Shown here: positions 1-7,827 of the stretch, piece after piece
Numbering within the stretch: the stretch's first letter is position 1
How the letters are laid out: the number at the start of each line of letters is the position of its first letter
IMG/VR virus record: IMGVR_UViG_2558860274_000010
Coordinates: 1-15,352 of that record
Strand: one strand, 5' to 3'
DNA: 15,352 nt
DNA from: a virus
Taxonomy: Duplodnaviria; Heunggongvirae; Uroviricota; Caudoviricetes
Translations under genes and position numbers: made by a program
The notes under the pieces: generated by a model
Database searches by the model: none
Seen by the model: only the letters and a program-made list of their open reading frames with translations
Told to the model about the DNA's origin: nothing

Positions 1-485
1 TTTGTTTTACCTCATTACAGATTTAAGGGTGAACAAATCCCTGCCATTGCTGGCATATAAGAATGAAACCGGATATTTATTACGGAACTGTTTTAAAGAC
101 CTGCCGGGATTTCGTTATTATCCTGGTGAATAACTTTATCGACCGGGTAACAGTTACCGGGAATTTTCTGTTCGGTTGCTGCAGTCACACACTCCTGCAT
201 TGTCCTGTGAACACTGACTGCAATATCAACTGGCTCTCCGGAAACAAGAAAAACTGTCAGAACAAGTGCAAATGCTGTATTCATTGCCAGCATCCTTTTT
301 GTATCGGACGTAAACGGGCCAGCATTGAAAGAATGCATATTTTATTTAATAACTCCCGTTCGTGTTTTCTCTTGTTAATGGCATCTTCAGTAAATACAGG
401 GTTACTGATAGTGACACCAATTTCAAAACAACCTTCAGACGTATTAACGTTTGGTAATAACGTTTCCATTATCGCGTCCTCAACA

Positions 486-794
486 ATGAATTTTGTGATG
501 CGATGCCTGGTGCCTCCAGGTGACGTTAACCAGTTAACAATTAACGCCGGATACAGAGAATGCATGACGTGTGGTAATCAGGCAGATGATCCGCATCACA
601 TCATTGGTCATGGACTGGGAGGGATGGGAACAAAGGCTGATGATTTGTTTGTTATTCCGCTGTGCCGTAAATGCCATAGCGAACTACACGCCGGGGTAAA
701 AGATTTTGAAGAAAAACACGGCAGCCAGCTGTTGTTGCTGATTCGTTTTTTAATGCACGCGAGAAATTCGGGTGTCCTGAAGTGGAAAGCATGA
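486..794 (+). CDS. nin-region Cys/His-rich zinc-binding protein (DUF1364/YbcO-like); start uncertain
   Basis: The C-terminal ~100 aa of the 63..794 frame carry a CxxC...HH...CxxCH pattern (CMTCGNQADDPHHIIGHG...CRKCHSELHAG) like small proteins found just upstream of rusA in lambdoid prophages. The stop codon abuts the rusA ATG (TGA 792-794, ATG 795). The frame is open back to 63, but the upstream part is Cys/Asn-rich and unprotein-like; ATG 486 or 495 are plausible starts. Confidence 0.45.
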   Translation: MNFVMRCLVPPGDVNQLTINAGYRECMTCGNQADDPHHIIGHGLGGMGTKADDLFVIPLCRKCHSELHAGVKDFEEKHGSQLLLLIRFLMHARNSGVLKWKA

Positions 795-1160
795 ATGACT
801 GAACGCATAGAATTTGTTTTGCCTTACCCGCCAACGGTGAACACTTACTGGCGACGTCGTGGCAGCACATATTTTGTATCAAAAGCCGGTGAGCGTTATC
901 GCCGTGATGTGGCGCTTATTGTTCGCCAGCAGCGGCTGAAATTAAACCTGTCCGGAAGGCTGGAGATAAAGATTATTGCAGAGCCACCGGATAAACGTCG
1001 TCGTGACCTGGACAATATCCTGAAAGCACCACTGGATGCGCTGACGCATGCCGGACTTCTCATAGACGACGAGCAGTTTGATGAAATCAATATTGTGCGC
1101 GGTCAGCGCGTTCCTGGGGGACGGCTGGGCGTGAAGATTTACAAAATTGAGAGTGAGTGA
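795..1160 (+). CDS. rusA: Holliday junction resolvase RusA
   Basis: 121-aa ORF with clear similarity to E. coli RusA as recalled, including the PDKRRRDLDN region, length ~120 aa and a C-terminal GGRL motif. Translationally coupled to the upstream ORF. Confidence 0.85.
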   Translation: MTERIEFVLPYPPTVNTYWRRRGSTYFVSKAGERYRRDVALIVRQQRLKLNLSGRLEIKIIAEPPDKRRRDLDNILKAPLDALTHAGLLIDDEQFDEINIVRGQRVPGGRLGVKIYKIESE

Positions 1161-1168
1161 TCGTAAAT

Positions 1169-1711
1169 ATGATATACCCGGAAATTACAGGCAAAAGCGG
1201 CGAGCATTTACGTCTAAAAACGCTGGAAGCCGTCTGGATCCAGGGGAAATTACGGATGTGGGGGCGTTGGTCGTATATAGGTGGTGGCAAACCAGGAAAT
1301 ATGTTCAATCAGTTGCTGGCATCCAAAAAACTGACAAAAACCGCAATCAATGAAGCCCTGCGTAGAATCAGGGAGTCAGGGATTGATAAACCAGAGCTGG
1401 AAGCATTCTTGCGAGAGATGATCGCTGGCAGACAGAAGAGCTGGTTGTCTCACTGTACTGATGCAGAGGCGTTACGCATTGATGGGGTGATAAGTAAAGC
1501 GCTTGCACGTTATCCTGGATTGATTGATATCCTGCGGCAAAGGTACGAAGGGCGGGGGATGAGTAAACGCAAAATGGCTGAATTGTTGAATGAGGTGCAC
1601 CCGGAATGGTGTTTTAGTACATGCGAAAAGCGAATTGCTAATTGGTTGGCTGTTGCTGAATATGCGCTATACATCCCTATGCGAGAATCGTTTGCTCAAA
1701 AAATGTCTTGA
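1169..1711 (+). CDS. putative late-gene antiterminator (Q-like)
   Basis: 180-aa ORF (ATG 1169; the track's 1157 start is GTG) placed between rusA and a strong intrinsic terminator, followed by late-region genes. This is the canonical lambdoid Q position; identity rests on synteny, not on a recognised motif. Confidence 0.5.
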   Translation: MIYPEITGKSGEHLRLKTLEAVWIQGKLRMWGRWSYIGGGKPGNMFNQLLASKKLTKTAINEALRRIRESGIDKPELEAFLREMIAGRQKSWLSHCTDAEALRIDGVISKALARYPGLIDILRQRYEGRGMSKRKMAELLNEVHPEWCFSTCEKRIANWLAVAEYALYIPMRESFAQKMS

Positions 1712-1736
1712 TTTTTTACGCATAAACTGTTTCAAT
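1708..1736 (+). promoter_or_regulatory. candidate pR'-like late promoter (TTGATT-N17-TTCAAT)
   Basis: Sigma70-like hexamers directly after the Q-like ORF and about 60-90 nt upstream of the tR'-like hairpin. Assigned by position only. Confidence 0.25.
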
Positions 1737-1795
1737 CCAGCTACGCTTCGCAAAGCTATACCGCGAGGCGAATAGCAGACATGGACACCTGAAAG

Positions 1796-1819
1796 AACCC
1801 GCTTTATGCGGGTTTTTTT
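1796..1819 (+). terminator. intrinsic terminator (tR'-like)
   Basis: Perfect 7-bp stem AACCCGC/GCGGGTT with loop TTTAT, followed by a T-run (TTTTTTT). Sits about 85 nt after the Q-like stop. Confidence 0.7.
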
Positions 1820-1942
1820 ATGTCTGAAAAACGGCACAGAACATTAAACGCGCTGGTAGTTGTGAATACTGGTCTTTCAGCTTGCTGGCTTTTTCGACAA
1901 GAGGTATTGGTATGTCACGTTAACCGGAAAAGGGAAAAAAGC

Positions 1943-2140
1943 ATGCTAAAACAGCAGGATATGACCGAAACCGCCAGAGTGGTGTTTAATGAATTAAGCG
2001 TCACCGAACCGGCGACCGTCGGGGAAATTGCGCAGAATACTTACCTTTCACGCGAACGCTGCCAGTTAATACTGACTCAGCTTGTTATGGCGGGTCTGGC
2101 AGATTATCAGTTCGGTTGTTACAGACGCCTTCCGCAGTGA
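1943..2140 (+). CDS. small HTH-like protein (65 aa), function unknown
   Basis: ATG 1943 preceded by AAGGGA at spacing ~8. The segment ATVGEIAQNTYLSRERCQLILTQLVMAGLA resembles a helix-turn-helix. The track's 1820 start overlaps the terminator and is unlikely. Confidence 0.4.
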   Translation: MLKQQDMTETARVVFNELSVTEPATVGEIAQNTYLSRERCQLILTQLVMAGLADYQFGCYRRLPQ

Positions 2141-2290
2141 AGGCTTTTTAATTTGTGGTAATGGGCGGCTGGTGGGTGTTAGCGGCACCTGCCAGCCATC
2201 TGCTCATGCGTTGGGGTCACAAGCAAACCTCAGGCCCATCTGCTTTGCGCAAAAGCGGTATGAGCCTATCAGAGAAGTGCTTATTGATCT

Positions 2291-3340
2291 ATGATTAATA
2301 CTGTAAAAATATCCAGTTGTGAGTTAATCAACGCTGATTGCCTGGAATTTATCCAGACCTTACCGGAAAACTCTGTCGATCTGATAGTCACAGACCCGCC
2401 ATACTTTAAAGTGAAGCCCGAGGGCTGGGATAACCAGTGGGAGGGCGACGATGATTACCTGAAATGGCTGGACCAGTGTCTGGCGCAGTTCTGGCGGGTA
2501 CTGAAGCCTGCCGGAAGTCTTTACCTGTTCTGTGGTCATCGCCTGGCATCTGACACCGAAATCATGATGCGTGAGCGCTTTAATGTGCTGAACCACATTA
2601 TCTGGGCGAAGCCGTCCGGACGCTGGAACGGGTGCAATAAGGAAAGTCTGCGGGCGTATTTTCCGGCAACAGAGCGCATTCTGTTTGCAGAACATTATCA
2701 GGGACCGTATCGCCCGAAAGATGATGGCTATGTGGCACAGGGGCGCGAGCTAAAACAGCACGTCATGGCCCCGCTGATTTCTTACTTTCGTGATGCGCGT
2801 AAATCACTGGGAATAACGTCAAAACAGATAGCGGAAGCCACCGGAAAGAAAAACATGGCTTCGCACTGGTTTGGTACCAGTCAGTGGCAGTTACCGAACG
2901 AGGGTAATTACAACAAATTGCAGGCGTTGTTTGCGCGTGTTGCGGCAGAAAAACATCAGCGCGGGGAACTGGAAAAGCCACACCACCAGCTGGTCAGCAC
3001 ATACAGTGAGCTGAACCGGCAGTATACGGAACTGCTGAGTGAATATAAAAATTTGCGGCGGTATTTCGGTGTGACGGCGCAGGTTCCGTACACCGATGTC
3101 TGGACGCATAAACCGGTGCAGTACTATCCAGGGAAACATCCGTGCGAAAAACCGGCAGAAATGCTGCAGCAGATAATCAACGCGAGCAGTCGTCCGGGAG
3201 ACCTGGTTGCAGATTTTTTTATGGGTTCAGGTTCAACGGTAAAAGCGGCGATGGCACTGGGGCGTTGTGCGATTGGTGTTGAGCTGGAGACAGGACGTTT
3301 TGAACAGACAGTCAGGGAAGTTCAGGATTTAATCGTTTGA
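2291..3340 (+). CDS. DNA methyltransferase (N6-adenine or N4-cytosine, beta-class), apparently orphan
   Basis: 349-aa ORF with catalytic DPPY motif near the N-terminus (IVTDPPYF) and an FxGxG AdoMet-binding motif near the C-terminus (FFMGSGST). No restriction endonuclease partner is evident nearby. Confidence 0.8.
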   Translation: MINTVKISSCELINADCLEFIQTLPENSVDLIVTDPPYFKVKPEGWDNQWEGDDDYLKWLDQCLAQFWRVLKPAGSLYLFCGHRLASDTEIMMRERFNVLNHIIWAKPSGRWNGCNKESLRAYFPATERILFAEHYQGPYRPKDDGYVAQGRELKQHVMAPLISYFRDARKSLGITSKQIAEATGKKNMASHWFGTSQWQLPNEGNYNKLQALFARVAAEKHQRGELEKPHHQLVSTYSELNRQYTELLSEYKNLRRYFGVTAQVPYTDVWTHKPVQYYPGKHPCEKPAEMLQQIINASSRPGDLVADFFMGSGSTVKAAMALGRCAIGVELETGRFEQTVREVQDLIV

Positions 3341-3389
3341 AACGGATGGGATTGCAGAATTAATTACGCACCATTATTATTCTGCTACC

Positions 3390-3465
3390 GGCCCTTTAGC
3401 TCAGTGGTGAGAGCGAGCGACTCATAATCGCCAGGTCGCTGGTTCAAATCCAGCAAGGGCCACCA
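3390..3465 (+). tRNA. ileZ: tRNA with anticodon CAT (Ile2/lysidine type or Met; ileZ-like)
   Basis: Manual cloverleaf: acceptor GGCCCTT/AAGGGCC, D-arm GCTC/GAGC, anticodon loop CTCATAA, T-arm GCTGG-TTCAAAT-CCAGC, encoded CCA at 3463-3465. Confidence 0.85.
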
Positions 3466-3472
3466 TCACATA

Positions 3473-3549
3473 CCGCCATTAGCTCATCGGCAGAGAGCGT
3501 CAGCTTTCGAAACTGGCTGTGTGGGGCCCGGGTCCCCGATGGCAATCCA
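3473..3549 (+). tRNA. argN: atypical tRNA-Arg-like, anticodon TCG (argN-like)
   Basis: Manual fold: D-arm GCTC/GAGC, anticodon loop TTTCGAA with U33 and A37, encoded CCA at 3547-3549. Irregularities: two C-A mismatches at the acceptor end, one mismatch closing the anticodon stem, and a non-canonical T-loop CCCGGGT. Confidence 0.5.
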
Positions 3550-3562
3550 TTATCTGCATTAT

Positions 3563-3639
3563 GCGTTGTTAGCTCAGCCGGACAGAGCAATTGCCTTCTA
3601 AGCAATCGGTCACTGGTTCGAATCCAGTACAACGCGCCA
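3563..3639 (+). tRNA. argO: tRNA-Arg, anticodon TCT (argO-like)
   Basis: Manual cloverleaf: perfect acceptor GCGTTGT/ACAACGC, anticodon stem ATTGC/GCAAT with loop CTTCTAA, T-arm with TTCGAAT loop, encoded CCA at 3637-3639. Confidence 0.85.
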
Positions 3640-3776
3640 TATTCATTCTTCCAGATTTCTTCCGGCAGAGCCTTATACTGGAATATACCTGGCTCAGGAT
3701 ATTGTTGAAAATATTATATGTTTGTCAAAAATAAAAGTTCTGTTAAGTATTGATTGAGTGTTTGTTATACGGTCTA

Positions 3777-4103
3777 ATGGTTTTTTCAGTATTAAATATT
3801 TATCATTCATATGGTGTGGGTAGAGTGAATATTGATGAGGCGTCGGGGTGTTTCATCCTTAGGCAGCGTATTGATATAGTCAATGCAGCACGAGCAAAGG
3901 CCTTCAGCCGTTTGACAGTTTTGTTCTGTACTCCTGATCGTCTTTTGGGAAGAGACGTTATTATTCTGAATAGTGATGCTATACAGAGGGTTTGCGATGA
4001 GTTCATGGTTGCTAATTCAGAATTATTTGCTCTTGTTCAGGAGTACAACAGAATAGCCAGGACCTGTGGTATGGATGAACTTCGGATTACTCATCTGGGG
4101 TAG
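3777..4103 (+). CDS. hypothetical protein (108 aa from first ATG), unknown function
   Basis: Open frame 3750..4103 (TTG at 3750, first ATG at 3777) in AT-rich DNA right after the tRNA cluster. A TTGTCA-N17-TAAGTAT promoter-like element lies at 3721-3749. No convincing Shine-Dalgarno and no recognisable family. Confidence 0.3.
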   Translation: MVFSVLNIYHSYGVGRVNIDEASGCFILRQRIDIVNAARAKAFSRLTVLFCTPDRLLGRDVIILNSDAIQRVCDEFMVANSELFALVQEYNRIARTCGMDELRITHLG

Positions 4104-4494
4104 ATACATATCTGGATTATCACCTGTTACGGTAAAAAGTGATTGCTTACTGTTTTTGTGAATGGCATTGCAGCAGCCGGATAATGTCAGTGCTGGCTGA
4201 CGGTGTGCTGGTGGCGGGTGTGGTGGTTGTTGCTTTCCCGTTGCTGAAAAAGAAAACGCCAGACTGTTAGCCGGGTATCAGTTAGCGGGAGAAATTTTTA
4301 AATACTTCACAATTCAGGCGGTTGACTGTTGTCTGGTTTGCGGGGAGTTTGTTAAAAGAAACTGGCATGGTGAATCCCCCTGTGCGGTGGGGCAATCAGC
4401 GAGTAGGTATATGGGATAATCGCGGATTCAGGTGCTGGTACTGAATTCACCGGGAGGCACCCGGCACCATGCAATGGCACATAGCGCCACTCTC

Positions 4495-4524
4495 CAGCCC
4501 CTCTCCGGAGGGGCTGTTTATATT
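4495..4524 (+). terminator. intrinsic terminator-like hairpin
   Basis: 9-bp stem CAGCCCCTC/GAGGGGCTG with loop TCCG, followed by a T-rich tract (TTTATATTGATTTT) on the + strand. Lies immediately 3' of the stop of the minus-strand ORF 4518..4886. Confidence 0.4.
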
Positions 4525-4886
4525 GATTTTGTCAGATGTGAGTAAACTCCTGATGGACTTTGTTGTTTTAGTCCATAAGGACATATTTGCAGAGTGCAAC
4601 GGTTATTAAAGCATTCATTCAATACGTTATCTGTATTTGTAGGGCATTCCTGGCTGTTTTTGATTAAATTCCAGAATGTTTTATTGAATGGTACTACGTT
4701 GTAAATGGTTACAGGTAGCACTTTGTTATTGAGCATGATGCCTGTGTGAGTCAGTGTAAATATACTTTCAGGAGGTAAGAAAGCATCCGATTGATACCAG
4801 ATTATTAATTTTATTTTACTCCATATGACTGAAAAAGATATTCCGCATGATGGCTGGATAACTGTATCAATCACAATCCACTTCAT
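4518..4886 (-). CDS. hypothetical protein (122 aa), AT-rich cargo gene
   Basis: Minus-strand ORF with a good ribosome-binding site (AAGGAAAGTAA then ATG). Low GC compared with the flanks; no recognisable family or signal peptide. Confidence 0.4.
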
Positions 4887-5186
4887 TTACTTTCCTTGTT
4901 TATGCCTTGCTGGTGATGTTCTGAAAAGTATAAATGATATTTTTGAATTAAACCATAGAGCAGAATTATTTTTCTGATGTTGTTTATTGTTTATTTAAAT
5001 ACAGGGTGGTTTATATCTCGTCTTGTAGTTTATCCATGCATATCTGCTTGATAATCAGGTTTTTATTTAAGGTATGGTTTTGTGTTTTTTCTGTATAGAC
5101 TGGCCCCCTGAATCTCCAGACAACCAATATCACTTAAATAAGTGATAGTCTTAATACTAGTTTTTAGACTAGTCATTGGAGAACAG

Positions 5187-5552
5187 ATGATTGATGTCTT
5201 AGGGCCGGAGAAACGCAGACGGCGTACCACACAGGAAAAGATCGCAATTATTCAGCAGAGCTTTGAACCGGGGATGACGGTCTCCCTCGTTGCCCGGCAA
5301 CATGGTGTAGCAGCCAGCCAGTTATTTCTCTGGCGTAAGCAATACCAGGAAGGAAGTCTTACTGCTGTCGCCGCCGGAGAACAGGTTGTTCCTGCCTCTG
5401 AACTTGCTGCCGCCATGAAGCAGATTAAAGAACTCCAGCGCCTGCTCGGCAAGAAAACGATGGAAAATGAACTCCTCAAAGAAGCCGTTGAATATGGACG
5501 GGCAAAAAAGTGGATAGCGCACGCGCCCTTATTGCCCGGGGATGGGGAGTAA
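5187..5552 (+). CDS. insC: IS2 transposase OrfA (InsC)
   Basis: 121 aa beginning [21 protein letters not shown]..., preceded by GGAGAACAG. Matches IS2 InsC as recalled. Confidence 0.85.
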
Positions 5553-5722
5553 GCTTAGTCAGCCGTTGTCTCCGGGTGTCGCGTGCGCAGTTGCACGTCA
5601 TTCTCAGACGAACCGATGACTGGATGGATGGCCGCCGCAGTCGTCACACTGATGATACGGATGTGCTTCTCCGTATACACCATGTTATCGGAGAGCTGCC
5701 CACGTATGGTTATCGTCGGGTA
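5510..5722 (+). pseudogene. insD: IS2 orfB (insD) 5' fragment, truncated after codon 71
   Basis: [30 protein letters not shown]...PTYGYRRV matches the InsD N-terminus. The expected continuation is replaced from 5723 by unrelated sequence in the same frame. Confidence 0.7.
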
Positions 5723-6919
5723 CAGAAGAACCCGAAAAATGTGTTGCTGGCGGTGTGCTGGATGCAGGGAGAGTTTGACATGAGCGCCGCCACCCACGCA
5801 CAGCAACCTGCGCTGTTTACAGCCATGCTGACACAGTTTCGTGCTGACCTCTCCGTGTTTAACGCGCAGTGCCATGGTGGCAGTGCTGCAGATGTGCCGT
5901 GGATTTGTGGTGACACGACGTATTACTGGAAAAATACATACGCTACCCAGTACGACACCGTGTACGGCGGGTATAAAAACAGGGAGAGTGAGGGCGTTTA
6001 TTTTGTGCCCTTCATGACAGACGGTAACGGCGTCAATACCGCCACTAACGCGCCGGCAGAAGATCCGGATATTCCGGCATCAGGATATTACGGTGCGGCA
6101 TCGAGAACGAATGGAAACCAGGTATCATCAAACCGCCCGACACATTTCAGTTCATGGGCGCGCAGGAGCATTATTCCGGATCGTCTGGCAACCGCTATTC
6201 TGAACGCAGCCGGGCGCACCTCAGCCTTCATCAGTGGTAAGGCACCGGAAATCAAACCCTCGCCCGGCGGCAACACGCCATCGGGTCCGTCTGCAGATAC
6301 GTCCGTTCGCACAATCTCCCTGCTGCCGGCAGCCGGAGAGGCTGCTGCGCAGGGCTGGAGCATTAAGGATGGCGGAATTCAGTTGTCAGATGGTGTATTT
6401 AAGATCACCAAGCAGAGCAATAAAACCTGGTCCCTGACGCATCCGGTGGATGACGCAATTACCCTGCTGACACAGGGCGGCAGACTGACCTGTAAGTTCC
6501 GCCTGTCAGGCGCACTGACCAACAATCAGTTCGGGCTGGGGATTTATCTGTATACGGATGCTCCCGTTCCTGATGGTGTGGCGATGACGGGTACCGGTAA
6601 TCCGTTCCTGATGTCGTACTTCACTCAGACCACTGACGGCAGAGTGAATCTGATGCATCACAGGAAAGCCGGAAACACGAAGCTGGGGGAGTTCGGCGAT
6701 TACGGTAACGACTGGCAGACGCTGGAGCTGGTGTTCACCGCCGGCAGTGCCACGGTTACTCCGAAACTGAATGGAGTGGCTGGCCCGGCATTCCAGGTTA
6801 TAAAAGACGGTCTGACACTGGGACTGAATGCGCTGACGCTGACGGATGTTACAAAAAATGCAGCGTATGGCGTTGAGATAGAAAGTCTGGTGCTGGAGAT
6901 AAATGCACCGGCAGCATAA
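5723..6919 (+). pseudogene. 3' portion of a prophage nanS-p/YjhS-family sialate O-acetylesterase gene, 5'-truncated and fused in frame to the IS2 orfB stub
   Basis: Translation from 5723 ([19 protein letters not shown]...[12 protein letters not shown]...YGGYKN...[20 protein letters not shown]...[14 protein letters not shown]) parallels the C-terminal half of E. coli NanS/YjhS as recalled, followed by a ~250-aa extension. The N-terminal part of the gene is absent. The position between the tRNAs and the holin matches where Stx phages carry nanS-p. Confidence 0.6.
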
Positions 6920-7285
6920 TAAAAAAGAGCCAGCGACTGACCTGAAAGAAGACGCTGGCTAAAAGGCCTTATATGTTTGTAGAGACTTATTTTTCACAGA
7001 CAGCAATGATGCCTGTCAATATATTATCAATATGCGGATTGTTTCAGTTACAGATGCTTTATTAAGGAAAAAAACAGCCAGCACTGACTTTCGGTGGAGA
7101 GGTGCTGGCTCAGAAGGATAGTTGGATTTCACATGATACTTATGCCTGGCGGTATATTTTCTGACAGACAGTGACGGGTGTTGTCAAGATATTGTGTCAT
7201 TTATAACCTGAATCAGGGGAGGCCGGAATGTTATCTGGCATTTTTAGCAGAGCCTGAATGCCATAATCACGGCTCCCGGAGTTGG

Positions 7286-7321
7286 CCGTCAGTGGGTGAC
7301 ACTGGCGGTTTTTTTGTTTTT
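7286..7321 (+). terminator. intrinsic terminator upstream of the holin
   Basis: 9-bp stem CCGTCAGTG/CACTGGCGG (one G-U pair) with loop GGTGA, followed by TTTTTTTGTTTTT. Lies 45 nt upstream of the holin start. Confidence 0.5.
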
Positions 7322-7365
7322 CTTTACTTTCATTTTCTGTCGGCGGTGACGGAGACATACATCAG

Positions 7366-7572
7366 ATGGAAAAAATCACAACGGGTGTGTCATACACCAC
7401 GTCAGCGGTGGGGACGGGATACTGGTTACTGCAGCTGCTGGACAAAGTCTCTCCGTCCCAGTGGGTGGCAATCGGTGTGCTGGGGAGTCTGCTGTTTGGC
7501 CTGCTGACGTATCTGACTAACCTTTATTTCAAGATTAAAGAAGATAAGCGTAAGGTGGCGCGGGGAGAGTAG
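7366..7572 (+). CDS. class II holin, phage-21 S21-type pinholin
   Basis: 68-aa ORF closely resembling the phage 21 pinholin as recalled (two TMDs, GYW and [14 protein letters not shown] motifs, C-terminal [13 protein letters not shown]). GGAGA ribosome-binding site upstream. Confidence 0.85.
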
Positions 7573-7827
7573 TCGATGAATAAACAATACGAACTGGTTG
7601 TAAAATGAATATTTCTAACTGAAAAAACGTTCCATGAGGTAAGAAAAGGTCACAGGCAATCAATAACAGGACGTGATGAAAGACCCTTGCATTTGTGCGC
7701 TTTCTCTTTAGATAGCAGCAGATACTGAAAATCTGAGTTGTCGGGGAGTCAGGGATACAGCTGTGCAAGAGTTGGTCATTGTGATTCCATTGAAATCCTG
7801 TATGCCATGAAGGGCAGGATTTTATGG

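Follow-up and report, generated by a model that had tools for sequence, protein, structure and literature searches.

Two minus-strand terminators beside the holin gene of a decayed lambdoid prophage, probable 3' ends of tandem antisense small RNAs

Two hairpins in the nanS-p/holin intergenic region

This study concerns a 446-nt intergenic region in the virus record IMGVR_UViG_2558860274_000010 of IMG/VR. The whole stretch analysed (positions 1 to 15,352 of that record; 15,352 nt), hereafter the window, belongs to a decayed lambdoid prophage of Escherichia coli and represents its late region. The intergenic region separates a nanS-p remnant (5510-6919, plus strand), of which the C-terminal DUF6645 part alone is kept, from the gene for a class II (phage 21-type) holin (7366-7572, plus strand; Pfam PF04971, E = 1.9e-32). 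It contains two hairpins that are intrinsic (Rho-independent) terminators of the minus strand. Terminator 1 (6921-6960) starts 2 nt past the nanS-p stop codon and consists of a stem-loop at 6928-6960 followed by a U-run at 6926-6921; terminator 2 (7068-7110) combines a stem-loop at 7076-7110 with a U-run at 7074-7068. The data presented below lead us to consider, with good confidence, that these are the Rho-independent terminators, and probably the Hfq-binding 3' modules, of two tandem paralogous small RNA (sRNA) genes carried on the minus strand of the gap.

Both elements show the features of intrinsic terminators on the minus strand, namely a stable G+C-rich stem-loop and a U-run found on that strand only. 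In hairpin 1, the arms (6928-6938 and 6950-6960) are complementary at 10 of 11 positions and the minus-strand RNA folds with a minimum free energy of -16.0 kcal/mol (z = -5.7; 0 of 200 shuffles equalled this value). Hairpin 2, whose core is formed by GCCAGCAC (7077-7084) and GTGCTGGC (7102-7109), reaches -16.3 kcal/mol (z = -3.2). On the 3' side of the stems the minus strand reads C-UUUUUU (U6) and G-UUUUUUU (U7), and the plus strand AAAAGG and CAGAAGG. An earlier reading of this DNA made from the letters alone (the sequence-only reading) had noticed this polarity, which holds, as do the limits proposed for hairpin 1; the end proposed for hairpin 2 (7108) falls one or two bases short. Unusually long loops of 15-17 nt had also been reported. 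This was an overestimate: once inner pairs are allowed, both hairpins are left with apical loops of 4 nt plus internal loops.

To place the hairpins in context, each T-run of at least five residues abutted by a hairpin was scored on both strands across the whole 15.3-kb window. The two minus-strand hairpins rank second and third, the first rank being held by a plus-strand terminator at 7284-7317; all three lie in the same intergenic region. Sites at -14 kcal/mol or better number 4 in the window versus 1.05 ± 0.89 in 40 dinucleotide shuffles. A standard terminator scan returned a sub-stem of hairpin 1 only; hairpin 2 was missed because the loop limit in that scan is 8 nt.

Paralogy, variation and distribution

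The A-runs and hairpins forming the heads of the two units align with each other above shuffled controls (z = 8.7, 0 of 1000), and the tails beyond the hairpins show a weak similarity (z = 3.9, 4 of 1000 shuffles). Judged from this alignment, the hairpins head two diverged, tandem paralogous copies of a unit of roughly 150 nt, the extent of the duplication being approximate because the tails are weakly similar. The copy next to nanS-p is referred to as unit 1, the copy closer to the holin gene as unit 2.

Eighteen distinct intergenic regions, out of 140 holin-anchored loci, were aligned. Besides the two-unit architecture found in the window (~478 nt), there is a one-unit architecture (~324 nt; "class B") in which a third hairpin variant, fused to the body of unit 2, comes immediately behind the nanS-p stop codon. 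Variation clusters in the hairpin loops, the inner stems and the unit 2 body, where 7112-7155 is the most variable patch, while the block 7156-7365, up to the holin gene, is nearly invariant. The plus-strand A-run is present in 18 of the 18 variants, and in every intergenic type hairpin 1 is positioned 9 nt past the nanS-p stop codon.

A set of 11 distinct hairpin variants was used to look for covariation. The outer five pairs (GCCAG/CUGGC) are constant in all 11. Bases at depths 6-10 vary yet still pair (C-G to U-A, G-C to A-U, and C-G/U-A/A-U). Pairs changed on both sides number 5, compared to 2.3 ± 0.9 in shuffles (3 of 500), and the proportion of paired cells is 87% in the true register versus 20-49% in slid registers. 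This compensatory conservation of the stems is taken as supporting, not decisive, given a small sample of related sequences.

The same comparison bears on the possibility that the role of the hairpins lies in the plus-strand RNA or in the DNA itself, as a stabiliser of the 3' end of the late mRNA, a processing site or a recombination junction, the minus-strand RNAs being incidental. The constant 9-nt distance of hairpin 1 from the nanS-p stop codon, and the invariance of the outer stem (GCCAG/CTGGC) and the A-run in otherwise unrelated intergenic types, are what a module junction would show; moreover, the plus-strand folds are equally or more stable. However, without exception the run consists of A on the plus strand and of U on the minus strand; several of the G-U pairs at depths 6-10 turn into A-C mismatches if read as plus-strand RNA, and the RNA bound by Hfq and by RNase E (see below) is that of the minus strand. 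Since a plus-strand or DNA-level role leaves the U-run polarity and the minus-strand RNA unexplained, we regard it as a quite improbable substitute for the termination of antisense sRNAs. Such a role may exist as an additional function, compatible with the sRNA explanation.

In H-19B, in 22 Shiga toxin 1a (Stx1a)-converting phages, in YYZ-2008 and in phage 434, the intergenic region has 96-99% identity to that of the window. Of 5,426 complete E. coli genomes, 699 contain it, 671 of these at near full length. The element corresponding to unit 2 in strain Sakai (EcOnc35; see below) is present in ~13% of complete E. coli genomes and is enriched in Stx1 phages. The idea that the hairpins are chance inverted repeats beside A-runs, devoid of function, starts from the fact that the intergenic region is AT-rich and that terminator-like matches in general are more numerous in the window (24) than in its shuffles (15.4). 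Against it stand the strong z-scores, the paralogy, the compensatory changes, the RNA found in vivo and a conservation of at least 95% in the 671 complete genomes; chance is already refuted by this evidence, and its probability is negligible.

Copies of unit 1 also occur on plasmids. In pRM10386-2, from the E. coli O26 strain RM10386, an 87-bp fragment of a nanS-p 3' pseudogene is followed by unit 1 (91-93% identical; L007 2434-2672 in our locus set), with a C-to-U change that produces a G-U pair in the stem. Similar unit 1 relics reside on at least six other E. coli plasmids of 82-98 kb, including plasmids of other strains. These copies suggested an independent mobile element, an idea rejected on finding that the relic, composed of the nanS-p fragment and unit 1, sits between IS600 and other insertion sequence (IS) elements. 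Separately, some loci (L089, L098, L110, L112 and others) have a different open reading frame (ORF) in place of nanS-p; about 700 nt upstream of the holin gene, loci of this type carry another minus-strand terminator-like element, AAAAAAA-GCCGCCAGC...GCTGGCGG, in several variants.

Hfq- and RNase E-bound RNAs in strain Sakai

RNAs crosslinked to Hfq in E. coli O157:H7 Sakai have been sequenced and "orphan" peaks catalogued (Tree et al. 2014 Mol Cell, PMC4104026, Table S2). Relevant here are EcOnc52 in Sp4 (1181998-1182075, "-", 3 datasets), EcOnc51 in Sp12 (2237479-2237555, "+", 3 datasets) and EcOnc35 in Sp4 (1186583-1186656, "+", 5 of 5 datasets, area under the curve 8.2 million), for each of which a Rho-independent terminator was predicted (PMC4104026). 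The sRNA papers on enterohaemorrhagic E. coli (EHEC) published from 2014 to 2020 use an older Sakai assembly (NC_002695.1), the current record being NC_002695.2. Offsets from the old to the current record are 0 for Sp3/Sp4, +142 for Sp5 and +137 for Sp12; those for Sp4 and Sp5 were obtained from Northern-probe sequences, and that for Sp12 from individual read coordinates. Ignoring the offsets mis-assigns peaks by one whole sRNA unit. Thus, the placement of EcOnc51 on hairpin 2, which results if no offset is applied, was rejected: once calibrated, EcOnc51 belongs to hairpin 1, and hairpin 2 to EcOnc35.

After calibration, the peaks correspond to minus-strand positions 6909-6985 (EcOnc52), ~6912-6987 (EcOnc51) and 7085-7158 (EcOnc35) of the window. 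Judged from gene orientations, all three peaks are antisense to the late operon, and Hfq binds RNA of the antisense strand over both units in vivo in Sakai. These are the same elements as the window units, on the same strand relative to the late operon and with terminators predicted there too: compared to the Sp12 copy of Sakai, unit 2 is 100% and unit 1 is 99.3% identical, the unit 1 tail being U6 in the window versus U7 in Sakai. The surroundings differ. The window prophage is a different one, and decayed: its nanS-p holds an IS3-family fragment, and its holin and endolysin genes are separated by an IS66-family element. In Sp4 of Sakai, an IS629 is inserted between units 1 and 2, at the equivalent of window position 7043 (L003 3131, L006), and the half on the holin side, lysis genes included, lies inverted ~4 kb away.

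Reads from the same units are printed in the hybrid table of an RNase E-CLASH (crosslinking, ligation and sequencing of hybrids) study (Waters et al. 2017, PMC5286369, supplementary file 9). Ten sRNA halves in this table are exact minus-strand matches to the window; among the sRNA halves assigned to these features, plus-strand matches to the window number zero. The fragments map to 7014-6992, 7009-6984, 6965-6933, 6965-6940, 6953-6928 and 6948-6922 in unit 1, and to 7151-7120, 7123-7091, 7113-7086 and 7088-7069 in unit 2. Their 3'-most ends, 6922 and 7069, fall inside the two U-runs, although these are ends of trimmed fragments and not 3' ends mapped by Term-seq. Together with the antisense Hfq peaks covering both hairpins, the positions agree with the suggestion, made in the sequence-only reading, of antisense RNAs with 3' ends near 6920 and 7068. 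The reads define a minimal extent of 6921-7014 (~93 nt, minus strand) for unit 1, the counterpart of EcOnc51/EcOnc52, and of 7068-7151 (~83 nt, minus strand) for unit 2, the counterpart of EcOnc35, which could reach ~7184.

That reading had further envisaged a single leftward transcript, originating near or within the holin gene and halted by the two terminators in succession before it enters nanS-p. Both terminators do stand in series and face the same direction. The fragments 7014-6992 and 7009-6984 lie upstream of the unit 1 Hfq peak and could represent read-through from unit 2; furthermore, an older Sakai annotation apparently had an antisense ORF (ECs5452-1) with a "3' untranslated region" over hairpin 2. 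However, the Hfq peaks are short and discrete (~6909-6987 and 7085-7158), and the fragments extend no further than 7014 and 7151, leaving 215 nt or more to the holin start codon. The EcOnc hybrid table contains zero fragments for the interval 7152-7365, queried on both strands, and a consensus scan of the minus strand between 7048 and 11431 yielded zero promoter-like sites. In 6 of 26 loci, a frameshift disrupts the sole antisense ORF in this interval (53 aa, 7197-7358, minus strand), which overlaps the plus-strand terminator at 7284-7317. Finally, related prophages have a single unit, or another kind of unit, in this position. What stands, therefore, is the minus-strand action and the antisense RNAs; a common transcript from the holin region with two successive stops has little to recommend it and seems very unlikely to us. 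Most likely each hairpin ends its own short sRNA, and unit 2 transcription may read through into unit 1 to some degree.

A protein-coding gene ended by hairpin 2 was also considered and rejected: the 53-aa antisense ORF is a low-complexity sequence that loses its frame in the 6 loci just mentioned. The ORF of the older Sakai annotation (ECs5452-1) appears to have been a similar small antisense frame.

The two hairpins had already been annotated. The curated entry for phage 434 in GenBank (OL657226.1) lists the same hairpins as minus-strand terminators (45305-45327 and 45456-45474), and the equivalent of 7284-7317 as a plus-strand terminator (OL657226.1). These are pipeline predictions unlinked to any RNA, and the paper that accompanies the record contains no discussion of these terminators. 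Literature text searches found no paper discussing EcOnc35, EcOnc51 or EcOnc52. The elements are thus already known at the catalogue level, as EcOnc35 and EcOnc51/52, and uncharacterised; the finding itself leaves current understanding as it was.

Candidate promoters and proposed mode of action

Consensus promoter prediction left the 5' ends of the two units unfixed. For unit 1, a candidate extended -10 element, TGATAATAT (7029-7021, minus strand), predicts a +1 at about A7014, which coincides with the start of the 5'-most fragment. An analogous TGTTATGAT upstream of EcOnc32, an sRNA of Sakai Sp3 (see below), predicts an RNA of ~118 nt versus ~112 nt on a Northern blot. For unit 2, a putative promoter region spans 7156-7199 (minus strand) and is nearly invariant. 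It offers two options: a TTGACA at 7187-7182 separated by a 20-nt spacer from a GAAAAT at 7161-7156, with a +1 at ~7149-7151 that fits the 5'-most fragment at 7151; or TGACACAAT at 7199-7191, with a +1 at ~7184.

We propose that each hairpin, together with its U-run, would stop transcription of one antisense sRNA gene. U-rich stretches, CCUUUUAG and CCUUCUGAG, are found just 5' of the two stems, with the U6-7 tails behind them; judging from the build common to Hfq-dependent sRNAs, stretch, hairpin and tail would make a probable 3' Hfq-binding module. Each unit would have its own promoter inside the intergenic region. The RNAs would be expressed in the lysogen, as are other prophage "moron" sRNAs, and might base-pair with host mRNAs in trans and/or with the complementary late transcript in cis.

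Several observations weigh against this interpretation. The CLASH ends are trimmed ends rather than Term-seq 3' ends, and the CLASH table is without reads over 6966-6983. The RNA evidence comes entirely from Sakai, where the sequences are repeated and reads are not assignable to one prophage. EcOnc51/52 passed in only 3 datasets of the Hfq crosslinking (CRAC; crosslinking and analysis of cDNAs), and the candidate promoters are weak or ambiguous, having either 19-20-nt spacers or an extended -10 with a poor -35. As to the hairpins themselves, they fold with equal or greater stability as plus-strand RNA (-15.6 and -20.8 kcal/mol), and one C-A position in unit 2 would become G-U on the plus strand.

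Comparison with known prophage sRNAs

A search of the intergenic region against Rfam gave zero matches at the gathering threshold, the best permissive matches having E values of at least 1.3 (13-18 bits versus gathering thresholds of 41-102). Membership in any Rfam family was accordingly rejected.

A Northern-supported parallel is EcOnc32, from Sakai Sp3 (peak 901574-901662, "-"), which was recovered in 5 of 5 Hfq datasets and runs at ~112 nt on a Northern (PMC4104026). In Sp3 and in loci such as L082 of our set, nanS-p is cut down to its last ~60 nt and is followed by TAATAAAAAAGAGCCAGCGCAGA...TCTGCGCTGGC; the EcOnc32 peak covers this hairpin. The Northern probe detects an antisense RNA because the probe sequence lies on the late-operon strand. 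Like the window elements, the Northern-confirmed EcOnc32 lies directly after the nanS-p stop codon, in the antisense orientation, with the same A-run and GCCAGCG stem base, and has a TTGACA motif ~100 nt upstream on the minus strand. In contrast, its body and inner stem are unrelated (BLAST finds only 21 nt in common), and it belongs to another intergenic type, with another plus-strand terminator before the holin gene. A GCCAGC/GCTGGC stem is also found in the tR' terminator of StxS.

AgvB (EcOnc01) and AsxR (EcOnc02) resemble the units in being short Hfq-dependent prophage sRNAs, antisense to the Q-dependent late operon, located at a module junction and ended by intrinsic terminators. They differ in lying between the moron (stx) and nanS-p, whereas the window units lie between nanS-p and the holin gene, and in being 51-60 nt long with a conserved 42-nt 3' region, whereas the window units have minimal lengths of 83-93 nt. 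When the probes for EcOnc01, EcOnc02 and EcOnc03 were compared to the window, allowing up to 4 substitutions, zero matches were found. Assignment to the AgvB/AsxR/EcOnc03 anti-sRNA family was rejected, as the conserved ~42-nt 3' region, the location and the length all disagree.

HnrS (EcOnc10-12) is a multicopy, Hfq-associated antisense sRNA of the prophage late region, with an intrinsic terminator, and pairs with a ribosome-binding site through a CUUCU motif (Poudyal et al. 2026, PMC13502914). The hairpin loops in the window are likewise pyrimidine-rich (GUCUUCUUUC and CCUCUCC). HnrS has a different sequence and lies downstream of Rz (in Sp12). Identity with HnrS was rejected on the latter ground and on the absence from the window of the 12-mer seed, complementary to mazF, through which HnrS pairs with mazF and hha.

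Lambda OOP and PaQ are short antisense transcripts that lie inside a lambdoid operon and have intrinsic terminators at their 3' ends. They overlap coding genes (cII and Q, respectively) and act in cis; in contrast, the window RNAs lie in an intergenic region.

The catalogue of Tree et al. is silent on the tandem paralogy of EcOnc35 and EcOnc51/52, as well as on their link to EcOnc32. Added here are the tandem-paralogue view, the terminator scaffold that the units have in common with EcOnc32 at a fixed slot beside the lysis genes, and exact coordinates.

Possible targets and significance

In one CLASH read, the hairpin 1 loop sequence GUCUUCUUUCAG (6942-6953) is joined to its perfect 12-nt complement in Sakai fhuA. 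The fhuA half of the hybrid lies ~104-128 nt inside the gene (L151 911-935), the candidate pairing sites being GUCUUCUUUCAG in the loop and CUGAAAGAAGAC in fhuA. Two more hybrids join the same sRNA region to ECs5124. These hybrids are single reads or have low counts; the fhuA hybrid is a lead, not a finding. A duplex fold of unit 1 with fhuA RNA was discarded since it gave unrealistically long-range structures.

Prophage sRNAs of EHEC, such as AgvB, AsxR, StxS, HnrS and Esr41, repeatedly rewire host iron uptake, virulence and silencing. A more speculative proposal, to which we attach modest weight and which we think doubtful as it stands, is that the nanS-p/holin junction is a slot for modular, diversifying Hfq-dependent antisense sRNAs that reprogramme host mRNAs. 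Its members may include unit 1, unit 2, the one-unit class B and EcOnc32, with a shared A-run and GCCAG scaffold and with variable loops and 5' bodies. If this were true, the sRNAs might use the 12-nt loop match to repress FhuA, a receptor for phages and colicins, providing protection from superinfection or colicins; or they might pair with the late transcript and thereby tune holin expression and the timing of lysis.

With regard to annotation, "orphan" minus-strand terminators in lambdoid late regions would mark sRNA genes. EcOnc35 is a reproducible Hfq ligand, yet unstudied; the paralogy and the shared scaffold provide a concrete set of constructs for its study.

Other features of the window

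The plus-strand intrinsic terminator at 7284-7317, ~50 nt upstream of the holin start, is separate from both sRNA units. It folds at -18 to -20 kcal/mol and has a T8 run; its 3' arm and T-run repeat, in inverted orientation, the A-run/GCCAG found in the minus-strand terminators. The CLASH table has zero reads for this element. It might insulate the lysis genes from rightward transcription that is not antiterminated, or end a convergent plus-strand sRNA.

Upstream of nanS-p, the window contains a DNA methylase ORF (2291-3340) and two tRNA genes, called as tRNA-Met(CAT) and tRNA-Arg(TCT) (3390-3639). The former occupies the same position as genes annotated ileZ, tRNA-Ile(CAT), in Sakai. This arrangement is unlike the Q-PR'-tRNA-stx order of Stx phages. 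Downstream of both tRNA genes lies an ORF of 117 aa (3750-4103) without a Pfam match. It is followed by an Rfam match to the STnc100 sRNA (4336-4525, plus strand; 130 bits) with a plus-strand terminator at its end (4495-4516). Positions 4394-4428 match the published Northern probe for EcOnc05 exactly, which identifies the STnc100 match as an Hfq-binding sRNA of the EcOnc05 type.

Two IS elements have altered the region. A fragment of an IS3-family OrfA (5142-5552) truncates nanS-p on its upstream side. An IS66-family element (about 8261-10594), ISEc8-like, complete-looking and with three ORFs, separates the holin gene from those for the endolysin (10710-11243) and Rz (11522-12046). The prophage is probably defective. 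The lysis cassette is broken by the IS66-family element; both sRNA units are nonetheless intact.

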